A program made the translations under genes and the position numbers. Shown one piece after another: positions 35,801 through 64,000 of a stretch of 64,000 nucleotides of DNA (its first letter is position 1; each line of letters begins with the position of its first letter). Source of the stretch: Nitrospirota bacterium. GTDB taxonomy: Bacteria > Nitrospirota > UBA9217. The stretch covers positions 401,405-465,404 of the forward strand of contig CAVWHO010000020.1 in assembly GCA_963754875.1 (NCBI GenBank). The letters run 5' to 3'. The notes beneath the pieces are model-generated. The model was not told the DNA's origin. It was given only the letters and a program-made list of their open reading frames with translations, and did not search any database.

Positions 35801-36541
35801 TCAACGCTTGATAGATGATTTGCTCTTTCTCATTGACTCTCCTTTCAGTTCTATTTTGTAAGCATTGTGTACCAGACGATCCATGATAGCGTCAGCTAAG
35901 GTCGGGTCGGCCAGGATATCATGCCAGTGCTTTACGGGCATTTGCGTAGTTATGAGAGTTGACCGGCGATCATAGCGGTCCTCGATAATTTCCAGAAGAT
36001 CTCTTTGCTGTTCCGTCGTAAGCGGAGCAAGTCCGAAGTCGTCGAGGACAAGAAGGTCTGCTTTAAGAAGAGACTTCATCAGTTTTCGATATCGCCCGTC
36101 ATGATGAGAAAGTGCCAGATCTTCCAAGAGTCGTGGCAGCCTTTGATACACGACGGCATGACCGTCCCGGCAGGCCTTATGGGACAGGGCGCAAGCAAGG
36201 TAGCTCTTGCCCACGCCGGTCGGGCCGATGATGAGCAGATTGTGGTGCTCGGTAATCCATTTGTTCGACGCAAGCGACAGAATGAGCGATTTGTCCAGCC
36301 CTCGAGGCTGACGGAAGTCGATGTCTTCAACAGACGCCGAGATTCTCAGTTTTGCAGCTCGTAAGCGCGTAACAAGTCGTCTGTTCTCTCGTTCAGTCAG
36401 CTCTCGGTCAATGAGGAGCCCAAGGCGCTCCTCGAAGCTTAGGGCAGTTGCCTTTTGATTCTGTACTTGTTCACGCAGGGCTTTTGCCATGCCAAAAAGA
36501 CGGAGTTGTTCGATCTTGTCGAGTGTGGGATGCGCTAACAT
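35801..36541 (-). CDS. istB: IS21 helper ATPase IstB
   Basis: Near-identical to 6850-7590. Confidence 0.95.
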   Translation of the reverse strand: MLAHPTLDKIEQLRLFGMAKALREQVQNQKATALSFEERLGLLIDRELTERENRRLVTRLRAAKLRISASVEDIDFRQPRGLDKSLILSLASNKWITEHHNLLIIGPTGVGKSYLACALSHKACRDGHAVVYQRLPRLLEDLALSHHDGRYRKLMKSLLKADLLVLDDFGLAPLTTEQQRDLLEIIEDRYDRRSTLITTQMPVKHWHDILADPTLADAIMDRLVHNAYKIELKGESMRKSKSSIKR

Positions 36542-36558
36542 AATGATCTCCTTTGAGG

Positions 36559-38100
36559 TTAGTTATAGTATTCGCGGCCACGGATATTGCTGTGAGTGAT
36601 CACCGGTGATGCAGGCCTCGACTCCGGCAATGGCTTTTTGTCCAAGCCGGTTTGAAGGATGGATTTGACGCTTCCGAAGCTGGTGCCCCCGATGGCGAGT
36701 GCCCTTTTGCAGGCAGCCTCAACGCGTTCTTTGCCAAACTTCTTGGAAAGGGTGATGATTCCCATGCAGGAGCGAAAGCCTTGTTGCGGATGAAGCTTCT
36801 TTGCGAGAATGGCCGTAACCAGCTCTGCCGTTGATTTGCCGGTTTCCGACGCCCAGCGTATCAGGCGCTCTGGGGTCCAGTCAGCATAGTCCCGATGGGA
36901 CTTCGGCATGTGCTCGGCAAGGGTCGTATGTCTTCCCTTGGCATAAGACCGGATATGTGAGGCCACCCGTTTGTTGTGAAAGAAGACTTCCACAATCGAT
37001 TCCGTTAGCCGTACATCCAGGTATTCATTGCGAAGCTGATAGGGTACGCTGTAATAATGGTCATTGACTTCGACATGGTAATCGATACCGGACCGTTTTT
37101 TTATTTTCCATTCCGCGTATTCGAAGAAAATCGCAGGCAAAGGCTGTAGTGCCGGTTTATCGATCTCCAAAAACCGGCCCATACGGCTGCCGGAGAGCTT
37201 CTTGAAGGGCCGGTTATTGAGTCTATCCAGCAGTTCCCGGATAGCGGCATTGAGCTCTGCAAGGCTGAAAAAGGTGCGGTTCCTGAGGGCAGCCAGGATC
37301 CACCGCTGCACCAGGAGGACCCCGGCTTCTACTTTCGCTTTGTCTTTGGGCTTTCTGACACGGGCCGGAATGACCGCGGCCCCATAATGAACCGCAAGCT
37401 CTTGATAGGTGCGATTGACGCCTGGCTCATAGCGACAGGCCTTGGTGATGCCGGAGAGGAGATTGTCGGGGACCAGGATTTCAGGGACACCGTCGATAAA
37501 CTGCAGCGCCCTAACATGGGAGCCGATCCAGTCCGGCAGACCCTGCGTGTATGTTGCTTCGGCATATGTAAAGTTGCTGGCGCCCAAGACAGCGACGAAG
37601 ATCTGGCAGTCGTGCATCTCTCCAGTGGATTTGTCGATTACCGGGACTGTTTGACCGCAGTAGTCTACAAATAGCTTCTCTCCCGCGTAATGCACCTGGC
37701 GCATGGAGATATCGAGCTTTTTTGCATAAGCTCGGTAGAGTTCCGCGAAGAAAGAATATTGATATCCGTCCGGATATTGCGCTTTGTACTCGTCCCACAG
37801 AAGCGTCAGGGTAACGCTTTTACGTGCAAGCTCGCGGTGGACGTCCTCCCAGACCGGAAGCGGGCGCGGGGAATCGGAAAGAATTACAGGTGGGAAGAGA
37901 AGATGCTCAAGAGCGGCGTCGTCCAGTTCTGCCGGCAGAGGCCATGATAGGCTGGCCTTCTCTGCTCGCCTCAAATACTCGATAACCGTGCTCTTGGCGA
38001 TGCCACAGCTTTTGGCGATGGCACGGCGACCCAGGCCGCAGGACCATTTTAGGCGTAAGACTTCTTTGATTGTTCGCATAGGTATTCTTTCTCTCGTCAT
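36559..38100 (-). CDS. istA: IS21 transposase IstA
   Basis: Highly similar to 7609-9150. Confidence 0.95.
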   Translation of the reverse strand: MTRERIPMRTIKEVLRLKWSCGLGRRAIAKSCGIAKSTVIEYLRRAEKASLSWPLPAELDDAALEHLLFPPVILSDSPRPLPVWEDVHRELARKSVTLTLLWDEYKAQYPDGYQYSFFAELYRAYAKKLDISMRQVHYAGEKLFVDYCGQTVPVIDKSTGEMHDCQIFVAVLGASNFTYAEATYTQGLPDWIGSHVRALQFIDGVPEILVPDNLLSGITKACRYEPGVNRTYQELAVHYGAAVIPARVRKPKDKAKVEAGVLLVQRWILAALRNRTFFSLAELNAAIRELLDRLNNRPFKKLSGSRMGRFLEIDKPALQPLPAIFFEYAEWKIKKRSGIDYHVEVNDHYYSVPYQLRNEYLDVRLTESIVEVFFHNKRVASHIRSYAKGRHTTLAEHMPKSHRDYADWTPERLIRWASETGKSTAELVTAILAKKLHPQQGFRSCMGIITLSKKFGKERVEAACKRALAIGGTSFGSVKSILQTGLDKKPLPESRPASPVITHSNIRGREYYN

Positions 38101-38526
38101 CCGGATCTCCTCAGAGGCGTATTTGAAGGAGGCAGGATATACGAATTTATAGAATTTACCCAGCGTCGATTTGTGGATTAGCGAATGACCGAATTGAATC
38201 GGAATGGTGGGTCGGATACCACCGGAATCGTGGGTCGGATTAAAACGGAATCAGGGGTCGGATAACAGCGGAATGGTGGGTCGGTTAGGACCGGAATACT
38301 CAAACAGTGTAGTTATCACTCTGTAGTCGATAACTGCATGCCCCGAAAATACACCAATTTTGTTCTTCCCTTTCACCGCATCTTTTTTTATACTACAAAA
38401 TGAGATGACATAAGTGCCCGACCTGCTCATTGTGGAACTGGATTGCGCAATTTTCGAGGGGGGTGCTGAGTACAGGGGCTGCTCAATAAAGAGTTGGGCC
38501 TCATAAATAACAAGGAGTGCATAGAA

Positions 38527-45833: not shown

Positions 45834-46526
45834 TCAGGATGCTAGCGCTGAGAGTCTGTCCTGCGATTTGATCAAGATGTATTTATCCTCGAAATCGATC
45901 AGCCCATCGTTCTTCATCTTGTTGAGCGTTGTAGTGACCGTCTCCCGAGTAGACGCGATGAGGTCGGCATAGTCCTTGTGAGTGAGCTTGATCTGCAGCA
46001 GATACCCGTTCTTGTGCGGCACGCCGAAATCTTCAAGCAGATTGATGAACGTCTTGGCCAGCCGCTGTTCGACCGTCCGGTAGAGAAGGTCAAGCAGCTT
46101 GTTCTCGATCTTCCACCGCTTGAGCCCGATCATTTTCGACAGCCTGATGGCAAGGCCCGGCACCATCTGGATGAGGCGTTCGAAATTCTCCTTCGTCATG
46201 ATGCACAGGAGCGCGTCTTCCACGACCACCGCTGATTCATCACGTTCCTGCGGATCGATGACCGACATCTCTCCGAACATGCTGCCGCCGGAAAAGATAT
46301 CCAGGATGATCTCGTTCCCTTGAGGAGTCAGCTTCGTGATCTTGACAGCGCCTTTTTTCAGGAGATATACATTCTTGTCCGACGCGCCCTGCAAATAGAG
46401 GACATCTCCCTTGCTGACTTCTTTCATGCTGGAATACTGGTCGATCATCTTGTATTCTTCCGTGCGCATCTGGCTGAAGATGTCGAGGTTTTTCAAATAC
46501 CACAGTTTTGTGCGTTCAGGTGACAT
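45834..46526 (-). CDS. Crp/Fnr family transcriptional regulator
   Basis: cNMP-like domain 'FGEMS', HTH 'ADLIASTRETVT'. Confidence 0.92.
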   Translation of the reverse strand: MSPERTKLWYLKNLDIFSQMRTEEYKMIDQYSSMKEVSKGDVLYLQGASDKNVYLLKKGAVKITKLTPQGNEIILDIFSGGSMFGEMSVIDPQERDESAVVVEDALLCIMTKENFERLIQMVPGLAIRLSKMIGLKRWKIENKLLDLLYRTVEQRLAKTFINLLEDFGVPHKNGYLLQIKLTHKDYADLIASTRETVTTTLNKMKNDGLIDFEDKYILIKSQDRLSALAS

Positions 46527-46594: not shown

Positions 46595-46616
46595 GTATGT
46601 AAGCCCCCTTACATAC
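46595..46616. promoter_or_regulatory. Crp/Fnr-type binding site
   Basis: GTATGTAAG-CCCC-CTTACATAC (TGTAA-N6-TTACA) in the divergent intergenic region. Confidence 0.65.
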
Positions 46617-48320: not shown

Positions 48321-48481
48321 ACTATCACTTTAAGAAAGAATTTTCAAATTGTCGATTTCTAAGCCGGGGGATTTATACCATGAATAATTTTGTGATATAC
48401 TAAACATACCGGTCGTTCGGTTTTATACGGTGAAGCACATGAAGGCGGGAATACGTAAAAATCATCCGGCGGGAGGCGCTG

Positions 48482-48958
48482 ATGAGAAACGACCCATGCA
48501 GATTACTGGATACAGGCGATCAATTCCCGCCGATGGATATTCCTACCGTACAAGGCGATAGAATCATCCTACCTGATTATTTCACTGGTCACTGGAACGT
48601 GTTCCTGATCTACCGGGGACATTGGTGAACGTTCTGCCGCCAGCAGTTGCTGGAATTTCAGAAGACCATTGCCGAGTTTGACCGCAGGCATATCAACGTC
48701 GTTGCCGCATCAGCAGACCCCGTGGAAGAGGCGGCAAATACGGTCAGCAAATACGGAATTACCTTTCCCGTGGGATACGGCCTCTCGCCGGCCGATGTCT
48801 CAACGGCAACCGGCGCCTTCTTTAATCCCGAAAAACACTTTATTCATGCGGCAGGATTTATCATTGGACCGGATGGCAAAGTGGAGAATGCCGTATACAG
48901 CAGCAGATCTATAGGCCGTTTGACTGCAAAGGACTGTTTGGCATTCATCAAATCCTGA
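48482..48958 (+). CDS. AhpC/TSA peroxiredoxin-like selenoprotein (UxxC; TGA 48626-48628)
   Basis: RBS+ATG 48482 reads 'YRGHW*TFCRQQL' in frame with ORF 48647-48958. Confidence 0.85.
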
Positions 48959-49023: not shown

Positions 49024-49611
49024 ATGCCGACAAAAGGGACAATGACAAAAGAGAAAATCCTCCGCGAGGCTATCGGCCTTTTTCATCAACGAGGGATCGA
49101 AGCGACGAGCATCAACGATCTGCAGTCCGCCACGGGGATGACGAAAGGCAGCCTTTATTTTCACTTCAAGAACAAGGATGCCGTGGCGAAAGCCGCGATT
49201 CGCAAAGCCGGCTTGGAATTCCTCGTTTTTCTCGACACTGCTCTGGCCGGAAAAACTCCCGGTGAAAGACTGGATAACTTCTTCCGAAGGGTCGTTGAGA
49301 AGCACAAGGCACTGCGGTTTGTCGGCGGCTGAATCTTCGGGAATGCCGCTCTGGAGATGAGCGACAAAGACAGGGATATGGCGGAGCTCGTGAACGGAGT
49401 ATTCGATGAGTGGCAAAAGAAAGTCAGGCAGGTTGTAGCGGCTTCTCAGAAAAACCGCCAGGTTCGAACCGATCTTTCAGCCGATATCCTTTCCCGCCAT
49501 ATCATCATGACGATAGAAGGCGGCATCATGCTGGCCAGGCTCAAGAAAAGCGAGAAACATCTCAGGGAATCCCTAATATCGCTGAGAACCCTCCTGGGGT
49601 TGAAGATTTAA
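49024..49611 (+). CDS. TetR/AcrR regulator, putative selenoprotein (TGA 49330-49332)
   Basis: HTH 'GMTKGSLYFHFKNK' in frame through 'VGG*IFGNAALEM' with the C-terminal TetR domain. Confidence 0.8.
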
Positions 49612-49741
49612 GAACCATGTAAGGATCATTACATACCATAAAGCGTTTGCATGGTATCGTGTTTGCAGACGGTAAATCATATTTCAATGCGAGCGGCAAT
49701 AAACACCATGAACCAATAACGCGGAGAGAAGGAGACGAGCA

Positions 49742-50074
49742 ATGACTGATTATTACAAAGCGGAGGACCTGGACAAGTTCGGCGATGTGGGCAAGCACAA
49801 TCCCGCCCTCTTCAAGAAGTTTATTGACTGGTACACATCGGCGCTGGAACCGGGAAAGCTTACCAAGCGCGAAAAGGTGCTGATCGGAGTCGGCGTAGCC
49901 CACGTCATTCAATGCCCCTACTGCATCGACGCGTATACCAAATCCTGCCTTGAAGAAGGCATGAGCCTGGAGCACATCACCGAAGCTGTGCATGTTGCGT
50001 CGGCCATTCGCGGGGGAGCTTCGCTGATCCACACGCTGCAGGCGCACAATGCAGTTGAACGGAATTCTCTTTAA
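49742..50074 (+). CDS. AhpD/CMD peroxidase-like protein associated with ArsS
   Basis: 'REKVLIGVGVAHVIQCPYCIDAY'; immediately upstream of arsS. Confidence 0.85.
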   Translation: MTDYYKAEDLDKFGDVGKHNPALFKKFIDWYTSALEPGKLTKREKVLIGVGVAHVIQCPYCIDAYTKSCLEEGMSLEHITEAVHVASAIRGGASLIHTLQAHNAVERNSL

Positions 50075-50099: not shown

Positions 50100-51053
50100 A
50101 TGATCAGGAAATTCAGTGAAACAATTTTATCCCATGGGCCGCTCAAGGCACTTGAAAGCAAAATTCTGCAGGTCAACCTCGGCTATCGCTGCAACATGGC
50201 CTGCAAGCATTGTCATGTGTCCGGCGGTCCGGCACGGAATGAGATCATGGACCGGGACACCGCTGAACGGGTCCTGCAGGTGCTGCTGAAGAATCCTTTT
50301 GAAACGCTCGATCTCACCGGCGGCGCACCGGAGCTGAACCCGTCCTTTCGCTGGATTGTTGAGGAGGCGCGAAAGGCCGGCCGTCATGTCCTTGTCCGGA
50401 CAAACCTCACGATATTTTATGAGCAGGGAATGGAAGACCTTCCCGAGTTTTATCGGGACCATGGCGTCGAGCTGATCGCATCCCTGCCGTATTATCTGGA
50501 GGACAGCGTTGACCGCGTGCGCGGCAGCGGGGCCTATCAGAAAAGCGTTAATGCCCTCAAAAGGCTGAATGCCCTTGGATACGGACGGGATGCGTCGGGC
50601 CTCGTGATAAGCCTGGTCTACAATCCTCCGGGGCTGTTTGTCGCGCCGGGCCAGTGCGCATTGGAGGCGGAATACAAGAAAGAGCTTGGGGGGCGCTTCG
50701 GCATCGTGTTCAACCGGCTGTACACCTTCACCAATATGCCGATCGGCAGGTTCAGGGATTTCCTGATCAGGACGAACAATCTGGAAAAGTACCTTCAGAA
50801 GCTCGCTGACGCCTTTAATCCGGCAACACTGGAGGGCATCATGTGCAGATATATGGTGAATGTGGGGTGGGATGGAAAACTCTATGATTGCGATTTCAAC
50901 CAAGTGATGGGGCTCCCGACCGGTCCCGGCGCGCCGCCGCATATCAATGAATTCGACTATCAGGCGCTTGCAGGGCGGTCGATCGCGGTAGGTGACCACT
51001 GCTATGGATGTACAGCCGGGCAGGGATCGTCATGAGTAGGCGCGATAGCGTAG
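50100..51053 (+). CDS. arsS: Arsenosugar-biosynthesis radical SAM (seleno)protein ArsS (TGA 51033-51035)
   Basis: CNMACKHCH, 'DLTGGAPEL','DCDFNQ','HCYGCTAGQGSS*VGAIA-TAG'. Confidence 0.85.
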
Positions 51054-51096
51054 CAGGCGGTCGCCTGCAAGGAAATGAACGAAAGGGGTGAGTTCA

Positions 51097-58729: not shown

Positions 58730-59716
58730 GTGAAGATCGACTGCTATATCTCACAGGGATGCGGTTCAGAGGAAGCGTTAAAGGAGAATATCGACCGCGC
58801 CCTGGAGGCTGAAAAGATTCAAGCAAAAGTAAGCATTCACCGGATCAGCGATGAAAAGGCGGCGGAATTGAAGCTCAGCGGATCGCCGTCAGTCTTCATA
58901 AACGGCAGGGAATTGCAGTCGTCCGGCACCGTCGGCTTTTCCTGAAGGATGTTCACTGACGAGTCAGGCAGACTCGCGAATGTGCCGTCCGTAGATACGC
59001 TGCGAAAGGCCATGAAGGAGCCGGAGTGCGGGACGGGTGTTGATTGCAACAAAGAAGTGTCCGCTGTGAAAAGCCTTATGGACCAGATTGGGGCTACAGT
59101 ACAGGGGAGACTGTCCGCGGCCAACCTAAGCCAATCGGAAAACGAGACGCGAAAGTATTTTTTGAAAGAGTTCGCGAAGACCGGCAAGCCTCCTGCCGAA
59201 CAATCGATCGTCGATGCAATGAAACTGCCGTCCCTGGAATCGGTCCGCAGGTTCATCGAAAGACTGCATAAGGCGGATATCCTTACGATGGAAAACGGAG
59301 AGATCGTATCCGCATATCCTTTCTCCGCAAAACCGACACGCCACAAAGTGGCGTTCCCGGATGGGCATGAAATCCATGCGCTTTGCGCGACAGACGCCCT
59401 GGGCATTCACTTCATGCTCGGACAGGACATCGTTGTCCGGTCGCGCTGCCCTGAGTGCGAGGGGGAAATGAAGATCGAGATGAAGGACGGTAAGATCGTC
59501 TCTTCCGTTCCGGATGGCGTGGTTGAATTTATCAGCAGCGGGGACCACTGTGGATGCACCGCAAAGACCTTTTGCCCGTTCATGAACTTCTTCTGCTCGA
59601 AGGACCATCTTGAGAAGTGGCGGGAAAAGAACCCCGCCTCCGCTAACGGCGAAATGTACCAGCTTCAGCAGGTCCTGGAGCATGGGAAAAACATCTTCGG
59701 AGATTTTCTGAAATAA
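58730..59716 (+). CDS. merB: Thioredoxin-fold (seleno)domain fused to organomercurial lyase MerB (TGA 58943-58945)
   Basis: 'GSPSVFING...GFS*RMF...NVPS' in frame with the MerB core 'AYPFS','HALCATDALG','SRCP','FCPFMNFF'. Confidence 0.8.
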
Positions 59717-60802: not shown

Positions 60803-61239
60803 GAGATAACCCCGTATTCAATGCGCCAGAGAAGGTCTTCAACCTCCTTTGCACCGGCTTCGGTATGCAGCAGATCAAGGGGTGTTTTACCGCCTAATCC
60901 CACCTGTTGACGACGAAGCCACTCCTTGGCTTTTTCCTCGTTCTCCAAGACCTCACAGGCGATCGAAAAGATCCTTGCCAGCCGGTAAAGCCGGTCGCTG
61001 GCGATGGCCGACAGGCGCTGACTCGGCGAGTTACGGACTCGGGCCAAGGTTCGCTCGCTCACTTCGATTATGCCGGCAAAAATGGGAAGGGGAAGGTCCA
61101 GCAAGCCCCTGACATGGTTGCCCGCTTTATAAGGAAACCCCTCGCGGATGAGCTTGTCCAAGTCCAGGGTGCTTTTAATTTTGCGTCCAAGAGATGTCTG
61201 TCCGCCAAGGACTGATACTATATTCTGTTCGGTAAACAT
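60799..61239 (-). CDS. Xre/MbcA/ParS antitoxin
   Basis: 'SDRLYRLAR','LGGKTPLDLL..EAG..VEDLL.RIEYG'. Confidence 0.9.
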   Translation of the reverse strand: MFTEQNIVSVLGGQTSLGRKIKSTLDLDKLIREGFPYKAGNHVRGLLDLPLPIFAGIIEVSERTLARVRNSPSQRLSAIASDRLYRLARIFSIACEVLENEEKAKEWLRRQQVGLGGKTPLDLLHTEAGAKEVEDLLWRIEYGVIS

Positions 61240-61565
61240 GGAAGTAACCTCCTGTCATCTGGCATTATATTATCAGACAAATGGCATGCTGTCAATGACG
61301 ATGTAGTTCGAGAATATTATGTTTCCGATGAATTAAAGGGAACCGAGCGCTCAGGCCGGCCACAAGAGTTCCACAAAAGTGACCGCATGATTTTGGCTGT
61401 CGAGAAGCAAGTAGGATTTCGGATCTCATGAATATTTCAAGGAAACCGTGACGGAAAATTTTTCGATTATTTCTATTATTGCCCATGAAAAAAAATGAAC
61501 TGGTACAGTAACTGATACAGACATAGAAAAAGGGTCAGCTTTTGCAAGCTAACCCCTTGATTACT

Positions 61566-61641
61566 TGGTGGAGCTGAGGGGGATCGAACCCCTGACCCCA
61601 AGACTGCCAGCCTTGTGCTCTCCCAGCTGAGCTACAGCCCC
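61566..61641 (-). tRNA. tRNA-Ala(GGC)
   Basis: GGGGCTG acceptor stem, anticodon loop CTGGCAG, TTCGA, CCA end. Confidence 0.97.
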
Positions 61642-61712
61642 ACATAATTTGCCGCAACAAGGTGATTAATTTAACATCACGTACTGATGTTGTCAAGAAA
61701 AAAGACGGATTT

Positions 61713-62568
61713 TCAATGCACGGAGCAGGATATGCAGGGGTCGTAAGACCTGACGAGCATCTGGGCGAGGAGTTCTATCTTCTGATCATTGGCCCCTTGT
61801 TTTGCATACTGGGCAACAAGGGCGCTGAGATCGTGTTGGATGTTGGCGTGGTTCTGGCTCGTGGGAATGACACAATCAGCGGACATGATTCTGCCGTCCT
61901 TGTCGAACTCGTAGCAATGATAGAGGATCCCCCGTGGCACTTCAACCGCGCCGACACCGACGCCGCTCTTTGGGGCAACCTTCTGTCGCGGTTCCTGCCA
62001 TGCTGAGCCTGTAAGCTCGTCGATAAGAGTGATGGCGTCCATGACCACGTGAATGCATTCTACCAGCTGCGCGATGTTGTTCATATACGGATTGTGGTTC
62101 ACCGGCTTGAGCCCGAATCTTACTGCAATCTCCCTGGCTGTGGGGTGAAGAAATATATAATTATTGTTCACACGCGCAAGCGCTCCAACGGCAAACGATT
62201 CGCGCGACAAGCGGCTCCATTTTGAAGTCGACTGCTCCACCAGGAATTCATTGGTCATCAACCGGTATTCGTGTTCTTTCTTAATAACGCCGTCCGTGGA
62301 AGCCAAATCTCCACCGATGAAGGGATAGCTTCCTTCACCTTTCAGCGAGACAAATTCGGTCTCCCGAGTGAAGTCGGGCAGTACAATCTGCCGGAATAGT
62401 TCCGCGGTGCGCAAAAGGTCTTCTCCAGCGTCTTTCAACCGGGTACTGAATTGCACGAGTTCTTTTTTTTCGGGCAACATGGTGAAGCCGCCCACGATTG
62501 TTCTCGTAGGGTGCATCCGTCGTCCGCCGATGCAGTCGCAAACGTCATTTGCCAATTGCTTCATCCGC
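61713..62568 (-). CDS. [NiFe] hydrogenase large subunit (group 3b-like), C-terminal part only
   Basis: 'VGALARVN','EVPRGILYH','YDPCISCSVH'; 5' part lost at the fold-back. Confidence 0.9.
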
Positions 62569-64000
62569 GCGGACGACGGATGCACCCTGAGAACAATCGT
62601 GGGCGGCTTCACCATGTTGCCGAAAAAAAGAACTCGTGCAATTCAGTACCCGGTTGAACAGCTGGAGAAGACCTTTTGCGCGCCGCGGAACTCTGCCGGA
62701 CATTCGTACTGCCCGACTTCACTCGGGAGACCGAATTTGTCTCGCTGAAAGGTGAAGGAAGCTATCCCTCGTCGCTTCCACGGACGGCGTTTATTAAGAA
62801 AGAACACGAATACCCGGTTGATGACCAATGAATTCCTGGTGGAGCAGTCGACTTCGATGGAGCCGCTTGTCGCGCGAATCGTTTGCCGTTGGAGCGCTTG
62901 CGCGTGTGAACAATAATTATATATTTCTTTCACCCCACAGCCAGGGAGATTGCAGTAAGATTCGGGCTCAAGCCGGGTGAAGCGCGATATCCGTTTATGA
63001 ACAACATCGCGCAGCTGGTAGAATGCATTCCACGTGGTCATGGACGCCGTCACTGTTATCGACGAGCTTACAGGCCCACATGGCAGGAACCGCGACAGAA
63101 GGTTGCCCCAAAGAGCGGCGTCGGTGTCGGCGCGGTTGAAGTGCCACGGGGGATCCTCTATCATTGCTACGAGTTCGACAAGGACGGCAAGATCGTGTCC
63201 GGTGTGTGCTGTTGTCCCACGACCAGAGGCCAGCCGCCAACATCCAACACGATCTGACGCCCTTGTTGCCCAGTATCCAAAACAAGGGGCCAATGATCAG
63301 AAGATAGAACTCCTCGCCCAGATGCTCGTCAGGTCTTACGACCCCTGCATATCCTGCTCCGTGCATTGAAAATCCGTCTTTTTTCTTGACAACATTGGTA
63401 CGTGATGTTAAATTAATCACCTTGTTGCGGCAAATTATGTGGGGCTGTAGCTCAGCTGGGAGAGCACAAGGCTGGCAGTCTTGGGGTCAGGGGTTCGATC
63501 CCCCTCAGCTCCACCAAGTAATCAAGGGGTTAGCTTGCAAAAGCTGACCCTTTTTCTATGTCTGTATCAGTTACTGTACCAGTTCATTTTTTTTCATGGG
63601 CAATAATAGAAATAATCGAAAAATTTTCCGTCACGGTTTCCTTGAAATATTCATGAGATCCGAAATCCTACTTGCTTCTCGACAGCCAAAATCATGCGGT
63701 CACTTTTGTGGAACTCTTGTGGCCGGCCTGAGCGCTCGGTTCCCTTTAATTCATCGGAAACATAATATTCTCGAACTACATCGTCATTGACAGCATGCCA
63801 TTTGTCTGATAATATAATGCCAGATGACAGGAGGTTACTTCCATGTTTACCGAACAGAATATAGTATCAGTCCTTGGCGGCCAGACATCTCTTGGACGCA
63901 AAATTAAAAGCACCCTGGACTTGGACAAGCTCATCCGCGAGGGGTTTCCTTAGAAGCGGGCAAGCATGTCAGGGGCTTGCTGGACCTTCCCTTCCTCGGC
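62569..64000 (+). other. Error-rich inverted duplicate of ~61090-62527, including a second tRNA-Ala copy at 63441-63516
   Basis: Reverse complement of the left arm with many indels; ~40-nt loop at 62528-62568. Confidence 0.9.

Follow-up and report, generated by a model that had tools for sequence, protein, structure and literature searches.

A TetR-family repressor gene with a predicted selenocysteine at the conserved sensing-cysteine position in a Nitrospirota genome

The gene at positions 49024–49611 (+ strand) of the window (the whole stretch of 64,000 nucleotides analysed here) raises the question of whether a bacterial transcriptional regulator carries selenocysteine (Sec), and of what such a residue would sense. 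The interval holds 195 codons followed by TAA in one frame, and its sole internal stop is a TGA at codon 103 (49330–49332, + strand, in the context FVGG*IFGNAALEM), in agreement with the earlier note, which had described a single frame broken only at this codon. Read through, the product is a TetR/AcrR-family repressor with a NemR/CifR-like Gly-Cys pocket and a predicted Sec103, as judged from its sequence, Pfam matches, alignments and a structural model. It scores above the Pfam cut-offs for PF00440 (TetR_N, residues 12–57), PF21993 and PF16925 (TetR_C_13, residues 81–182), the last of which spans the TGA codon. The AlphaFold2 model of the read-through protein, built on a 64-row alignment, has a pLDDT of 94 and nine helices forming a complete TetR fold; its best structural matches are TetRs (TM 0.8–0.9), and residue 103 immediately precedes the helix formed by residues 104–112. 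According to this model, a 102-aa product ending at the TGA is left without helices 6–9.

Because gene callers stop at TGA, homologues were sought again with the 102-aa half as query, and the matches it gave were aligned for a further search, from which the best 120 of 295 matches were used. All 120 full-length homologues compared (the best 120 of 304 matches) carry Cys at column 103, within an invariant GC..GN context. The matches listed gave 187 rows of cluster representatives, counting the window's but neither the query as read through nor 8 additional members of clusters; 17 of these end exactly at column 102, 4 end at scattered internal places and 166 are full length, and each of the 170 that extend past column 103 has Cys there. 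Among these matches, 16 database clusters besides that of the window stop exactly at column 102. The DNA of three of the 16 was inspected (loci L047, L048 and L111, the last from genome G471), and in all of them a TGA is followed in frame by the downstream half; L047, like L048 a metagenome contig, is cut by the contig end at residue 162. A fifth TGA locus, L152 of genome G928, comes from another phylum. The earlier note had allowed that the TGA might be an isolated mutation or error; four further loci have it, with identities to the window's protein of 76% (L047), 69% (L048), 50% (L111) and 42% (L152). Over 43 distinct DNA loci, codon 103 is TGA in 5, Cys in 38 and nothing else. Two clusters, P0002 (Cys form) and P0125 (truncated form), each list a longest contig of 6406 bp, and may be paralogues sharing one contig.

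Codons 104–107 vary only synonymously across the five TGA loci, which argues that they are translated. Between TGA loci (G928 excluded) the half after the TGA has a pN of 0.13–0.35 and a pS of 0.58–0.82 (both uncorrected), the values for the N-terminal half are similar, and by this comparison the downstream half is under purifying selection. A tree of 42 rows from the quick search (three short matches and columns 103–114 being left out) needs three changes, and a single clade of the five TGA loci is rejected (p-AU 0.0007). The Sec form may have arisen three times, or further back with subsequent losses. It is rare: among genomes of the host's class the gene is present in 6 of 64 genomes, with TGA in the host alone, and no further TGA copy was found in 61 relatives, 401 genomes of the phylum or 64 of the class. 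One TGA locus was found in 390 genomes of another class, and one in 401 genomes of another phylum. In a scan of genome contigs, the high-identity matches reaching column 103 were all Cys. The same-genus genome G003 has a Cys orthologue with the same order of tetR, CMD and arsS (the neighbours described below), together with selB, which indicates that Sec is not required.

A candidate SECIS element follows the codon. The hairpin that had been claimed from the sequence, CGCTC[TGGAGAT]GAGCG, is located at 49347–49363 (+), and is predicted to be a bacterial SECIS. The published bSECIS model asks for a loop of 3–9 nt with G in its first two places and a stem of 4–16 bp, at 16–37 nt from the UGA and with an MFE of −7.5 or lower (PMC13188914, section 5). 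The hairpin fits this model, with a 7-nt loop (UGGAGAU) starting 20 nt past the TGA and a 5-bp stem, and its energy is −8.3 kcal/mol with an extended stem and −6.4 for the 5-bp core alone. Conservation of the hairpin, which the earlier note had proposed to check, turned out to follow the codon: over the 43 distinct loci, five Watson–Crick pairs at the window's register are formed in 5/5 TGA loci and in 0/38 Cys loci. Nor do they occur in any of the 18 Cys loci in which the residues A[LV]E[ML][SG] would permit the hairpin. The TGGA start of the loop, taken alone, is found in 5/5 TGA loci and 16/38 Cys loci. The L111 hairpin has one compensatory pair (U-A to C-G); covariation over the five loci lacks significance (104 of 500 shuffles), the 61-nt region has no folding advantage over shuffled versions of itself (z −0.47), and the MFE structure predicted for it differs from the hairpin. 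Six other TGA genes of known families in the host (SelD, a second peroxiredoxin, an Hdr-associated gene, two FdhA and one molybdoenzyme) all have G-loop hairpins starting 19–24 nt downstream, and the tetR hairpin shares its position and GG loop with those of SelD, FdhA and the peroxiredoxin. A bSECIS-type rule, whose thresholds were chosen after the candidates had been seen, accepts all four sites of the window and 5 of the 6 from known families, against 56 of 3000 host Cys codons and 35 of the 1484 TGAs that end long ORFs. The hairpin constrains codons 109–113 and was kept in three lineages, which implies selection for Sec.

The host genome (4.3 Mb, 90% complete) encodes selA, selB and tRNA-Sec(UCA) on the contig of the window, and a selD with its own in-frame TGA; TGA is also an ordinary stop there, terminating 1484 long ORFs. 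selB was found in G471 and selA in G928. Eight tested genomes with the Cys form carry Sec machinery too, so the machinery alone does not predict the Sec form. Taken together, the conserved TGA, the TGA-specific hairpin, the Sec machinery and the purifying selection give strong support to the earlier proposal of Sec at the NemR-equivalent Cys, and the in-frame TGA is very likely read as Sec in a SelB-dependent manner, as far as sequence comparison can tell. Two ways in which this could be wrong deserve mention. The UGA might be decoded as Cys, for instance by a Cys tRNA of the shape of tRNA-Sec, giving an ordinary Cys TetR. Such a tRNA-Sec-shaped gene, with a GCA anticodon, does lie beside selD in the host (L165:1980–2081, G000:C13), where ARAGORN found no ordinary tRNA-Cys in the assembly, and selC* tRNAs are described in Nitrospirae in the accessible part of PMC5389517. 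The same part of that source shows opal decoding for selC* with a UCA anticodon, though, whereas that of the host is GCA, and with a true tRNA-Sec(UCA), selA and selB in the host such decoding would be a back-up at most; we regard it as highly improbable. Least probable of all is a nonsense mutation, an assembly error or a gene split into a 102-aa HTH half and an 84-aa half starting at Met112. Gene callers do annotate two pieces, and an ATG is available at 49357, but the same TGA recurs in five loci down to 42% identity, the synonymous-only codons 104–107 lie between the TGA and Met112, the C-terminal half is under purifying selection, and the hairpin is specific to TGA loci.

What the residue could do is suggested by known regulators. 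The fold is that of E. coli NemR (PDB 4yze; Z 21.7, rmsd 2.4, 188 residues aligned, 18% identity), and by transitive alignment NemR Cys106 (the single Cys of 4yze, numbered 108 in the chain) corresponds to Cys104 of homologue L010 and thereby to residue 103 of the window's protein, which thus has Sec where NemR has Cys. NemR has six Cys in total, against one chalcogen residue here. The HOCl switch of NemR is a sulfenamide, according to the available part of PMC7464077, and its partner Lys175 aligns with Arg172 of the window's TetR (R in 119/120 homologues, the best 120 of 304 matches); this switch is therefore not simply transferable. An invariant Lys175 of the window's protein sits three residues beyond Arg172. 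P. aeruginosa CifR (PDB 6nsn; Z 19.0, rmsd 3.3, 191 aligned, 16–17% identity) likewise shares the fold and a Gly-Cys pair next to helix 6, and senses epoxides with Cys. In the portion of PMC10827105 available, Cys107 is needed for epoxide sensing by CifR, and NEM releases CifR from DNA. S. aureus GbaA is a TetR thiol switch too, with its reactive Cys104 in helix 6; it is a two-Cys system forming an intramolecular disulfide (PMC8693949, in excerpt), whereas the window's protein has one predicted Sec and no Cys. A second Cys near the C-terminus, present in 101/120 homologues (the best 120 of 304 matches), is missing here, which makes this a one-selenol protein. ArsR and MerR metal sensors have the ArsR or MerR fold and two to three metal-binding Cys; the window's protein has a TetR fold with a single U and no C. 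The single selenol fits a covalent switch of the monothiol type, and argues against multi-thiol chelation.

The regulator is also placed where an autorepressor would be expected to act. A promoter-like site with an extended −10 box (TG..TATACT) matches the consensus at 48372–48401 (+), a consensus that has 10 matches where shuffled sequence would give 7.9. Immediately downstream of the −10 box, at 48405–48424 (+), a TetR operator with the family consensus TAGACCGATCGGTCTGTTTT is predicted by a scoring matrix. The matrix was derived from the regions upstream of homologues (22 of 27), with the window left out; in these regions the motif mostly stands right after a −10-like box. The predicted operator is the top-scoring site of the 4.3-Mb genome (20.5 bits), but column-shuffled matrices reach top scores of 19–23 bits, so the evidence for the operator is its place and not its score. 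The earlier guess of an operator within 48390–48430 thus gains from the family motif, and we predict that this operator-like palindrome is the site of the TetR at its own promoter. A site proposed for 49612–49740 fared less well: over 44–62 kb of the window, no operator match above 8 bits was found in that interval or before the mer genes. A genome-wide regulon derived from the same matrix was discarded, with 51 matches above 13 bits against 28–51 for shuffled matrices.

The interval 49612–49740 does hold a different palindrome, TGTAA-N6-TTACA at 49618–49633 (+), before CMD and arsS, which is likely of the Crp/Fnr type and not a TetR operator. It has two exact copies in the 4.3-Mb genome, at 49618 and at 46598, the latter adjoining the gene of a Crp/Fnr-family regulator (45834–46526, − strand, Pfam), a candidate for its binder. 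Since the same palindrome with other spacer lengths gives 0–3 genome copies each, the places of these copies matter and not their counts. The box recurs in L047 (at 114), in L048 (at 192 and 1045, again between tetR and CMD) and in L049 (at 4711). From these boxes we infer that in this genome CMD and arsS seem also to respond to a regulator of the Crp/Fnr type, as a second input.

The operon begins with an AhpC/TSA peroxiredoxin-like gene (48482–48958, + strand) with a TGA at 48626 (UxxC) and a hairpin at 48640–48653. After tetR come a gene for an arsenosugar biosynthesis-associated peroxidase-like protein of the CMD fold (49742–50074, + strand, TIGR04169 above cut-off) and arsS, for a radical SAM selenoprotein (50100–51053, + strand, TIGR04167) with its TGA at 51033 in GQGSS-U and a hairpin at 51053–51068. 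The operon thus holds three predicted selenoproteins (Prx, TetR and ArsS); OsmC is also among the neighbours. NemR has nemA and gloA beside it, which the window's TetR lacks, and the two are alike in having redox and detoxification neighbours. Near homologues (110 of 205 ORFs submitted), these are CMD/AhpD, Prx, FMN reductases, nitroreductases, NADH:flavin oxidoreductase, GrdB-like proteins and DsrE. Downstream of the regulator gene, arsS is present within 4 kb in 4/4 TGA loci and in 4/21 Cys loci, out of 44 loci of which 19 were dropped for short flanks. In G471 it starts 28 bp downstream of the Sec-TetR gene, and in G928 a GrdB/PrdB-like gene with a TGA and then CMD stand before it. Of the four Cys loci with arsS, three are closely related, and of the four TGA loci, two belong to one clade; the number of lineages behind the enrichment is therefore three. 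Of the control over downstream As and Hg genes that the earlier note had suggested, the arsenic link is made plausible, for arsS only, by these counts; the mercury part, discussed below, found no support. arsM is absent from the operon; an arsM-like TGA gene elsewhere in the host is below the family cut-off, and no match was found in G003.

From these elements we propose the following mechanism. SelB would use the hairpin to insert Sec at codon 103, and the full-length TetR(Sec) would form a homodimer that represses Prx(U) and tetR(U), from which transcription probably reads through into CMD-arsS(U). That it is a dimeric autorepressor bound over its own transcription start appears very probable from the sequence. 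Sec103, at the start of helix 6, would offer one selenolate for reaction with a soft electrophile or an oxidant, and its modification would shift helix 6 and the spacing of the HTH domains, as described for CifR Cys107; release from DNA would then induce Prx(U), tetR(U) and probably CMD-arsS(U). By analogy, we hold it quite probable that the modified single selenolate moves helix 6 and releases DNA. The reading as a whole, in which Sec is inserted, the protein is a dimeric autorepressor and modification of the selenolate releases DNA, seems to us rather likely.

The identity of the inducer is its least certain part. An oxidant or organic electrophile has close to an even chance and is somewhat more probable than a methylarsenical; a trivalent methylarsenical is a tentative candidate, and some other compound would be improbable. 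DMAs(III) has a single bond to offer to a thiol or selenol. It would be an example of the methylarsenicals considered here as a substrate of ArsS, which adenosylates it (in the available part of PMC13598754). A bolder and more doubtful idea is that selection in several anaerobic lineages made the single selenolate a sensor of trivalent methylarsenic that switches on arsS, while the UGA ties the repressor level to selenium supply. If true, one gene would integrate arsenic and selenium status, and it would be the first bacterial Sec transcription factor.

Other functions for an inserted Sec were weighed against this mechanism. Any Sec codon in a repressor can be expected to bring some coupling to selenium, and its main role could be to let Sec-tRNA set the amount of repressor: with selenium scarce, translation would stop at codon 103, no dimer helices would be made, and the operon would be derepressed (or subject to polarity). 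The lack of helices 6–9 in the modelled product ending at the TGA suits this, as do the three predicted selenoproteins of the operon and the arsS or other TGA-bearing redox genes downstream in 4/4 flanked TGA loci. Such a gauge could use any position, however, and the codon stands exactly at the chemically conserved pocket Cys, the place that a gain in reactivity would predict; moreover, in G003 the same pair, CMD-arsS(U), is preceded by a Cys orthologue. As a main role it is unlikely, and because termination at codon 103 removes the dimer helices, we see an effect of selenium supply as a by-product. Many TetRs bind their ligands non-covalently. Residue 103 could accordingly be merely part of the pocket, with a near-neutral Cys/Sec swap in selenium-rich anaerobes, and the interleaving of Cys and Sec forms in the trees would suit such a swap, as would the finding (in the consulted part of PMC10827105) that the CifR-equivalent Cys occurs in 52% of 938 TFRs aligned to CifR, most of them untested. 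Against it stand the hairpin kept over codons 109–113 in three lineages and the redox and detoxification neighbours, and it has in our estimation only a small chance of being right.

The earlier note had raised, as one possibility, a sensor of soft metals that may control the downstream As/Hg genes in place of ArsR/MerR; for the mer genes this would be a sensor of Hg(II) or inorganic As(III). Selenols bind Hg tightly; merF, merA and a merB-like gene lie 7–10 kb downstream of tetR on the same strand, and there is no MerR or ArsR match within the window. The mer genes, however, have no operator match above 8 bits before merF, merA or merB, and a second merA-merB block on the same contig, 86% identical, has no copy of this TetR with it. 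None of the 43 other loci had merF or merB nearby (within a 6-kb limit and with many flanks short), five MerR-family and seven ArsR-family matches are present elsewhere in the host, and the protein offers one Sec and no Cys. Control of the mercury genes in place of MerR is thus very unlikely, and covalent modification of a single selenolate in an autorepressor remains our preferred reading.

Eukaryotic SELENOH is described as DNA-binding, so any claim of novelty is limited to bacterial HTH regulators; within these, we class the Sec-TetR as a new family of selenoproteins and, among TetRs, as a variant of the thiol-switch type. Neither the window's protein (18 NCBIfam families match it, none above the curated cut-off and none a selenoprotein family) nor that of G928 reaches any curated NCBIfam cut-off, and in the protein collection searched all genes of this kind are called as fragments of 101–114 aa, which makes the family invisible in annotation. 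Catalogued bacterial selenoproteins are mostly enzymes or redox, transport or metal-binding proteins (PMC13188914). That catalogue of 119 prokaryotic families follows the same logic of Cys/Sec pairs and SECIS as used here, and lists the neighbours Prx-like UxxC, radical SAM TIGR04167 and the DF family. Its Table 1 (119 families) contains no TetR or other HTH transcription factor, the nearest entries being an FmdB-family 'putative regulatory protein' and methylated-DNA-protein-cysteine methyltransferase. A TetR selenoprotein is likewise absent from the main text, as far as available, of PMC9312934, PMC13326102, PMC13745706, bioRxiv 2022.07.06.499078 and PMC8318568, and was not found in the accessible portions of four deep-Sep supplements and one BSepDB supplement; a prior listing elsewhere is possible. 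The sole recoded TetR found in the literature is Methanosarcina MA2902, whose conserved in-frame stop is read as a recoded amino acid. It differs in being a TAG/Pyl case from archaea, a candidate left unverified in that paper, and in having no Cys/Sec pair (PMC1914089, in part). If true, the Sec-TetR takes selenocysteine from catalysis to signal sensing. The natural Cys/Sec pair with the same gene order (G003 and the window) would make any advantage of Sec over Cys testable as DNA release, and the regulator offers a handle on the unexplained role of arsS and CMD in anaerobes.

Several further observations were made around these loci. A possible second Sec regulator, an ArsR-like TGA match at G000:C4:3883–3948 (−), was rejected, as it is frameshifted, does not have its TGA at a Cys and looks like a pseudogene. 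In the window, a DF-family thioredoxin-like domain and a MerB-like lyase share one frame at 58730–59716 (+) across a TGA at 58943 with a hairpin at +21, and likely form one selenoprotein of 328 aa by sequence; a copy with 85% identity lies at G000:C20:387911–388894. The GrdB/PrdB-like gene of G928 (L160:6236–7447, − strand), between the Sec-TetR gene and CMD-arsS, has an in-frame TGA (V-U-PFC) and a long C-terminal extension, and its product is below all family cut-offs except for a partial Pfam GRDB match. Prx-like genes split at a TGA occur near family members in L048 (6655–7341), which reads through as UxxC, and in L057 (2887–3534) and L061 (6025–6666), which are seen as two ORF pieces. The arsS of G471 (L118:1–788, − strand) runs out of homology and ends around residue 230, close to the end of its contig, and may be broken or misassembled. 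At 61085–63995, the end of the contig has a match to itself in reverse orientation (95%), with degenerate repeats of a hydrogenase-like gene, which is possibly an assembly artefact. The left edge of the metal/redox island is marked at 35801–38300 by a transposase pair, which we take to be IS21-like, with several copies in the genome.
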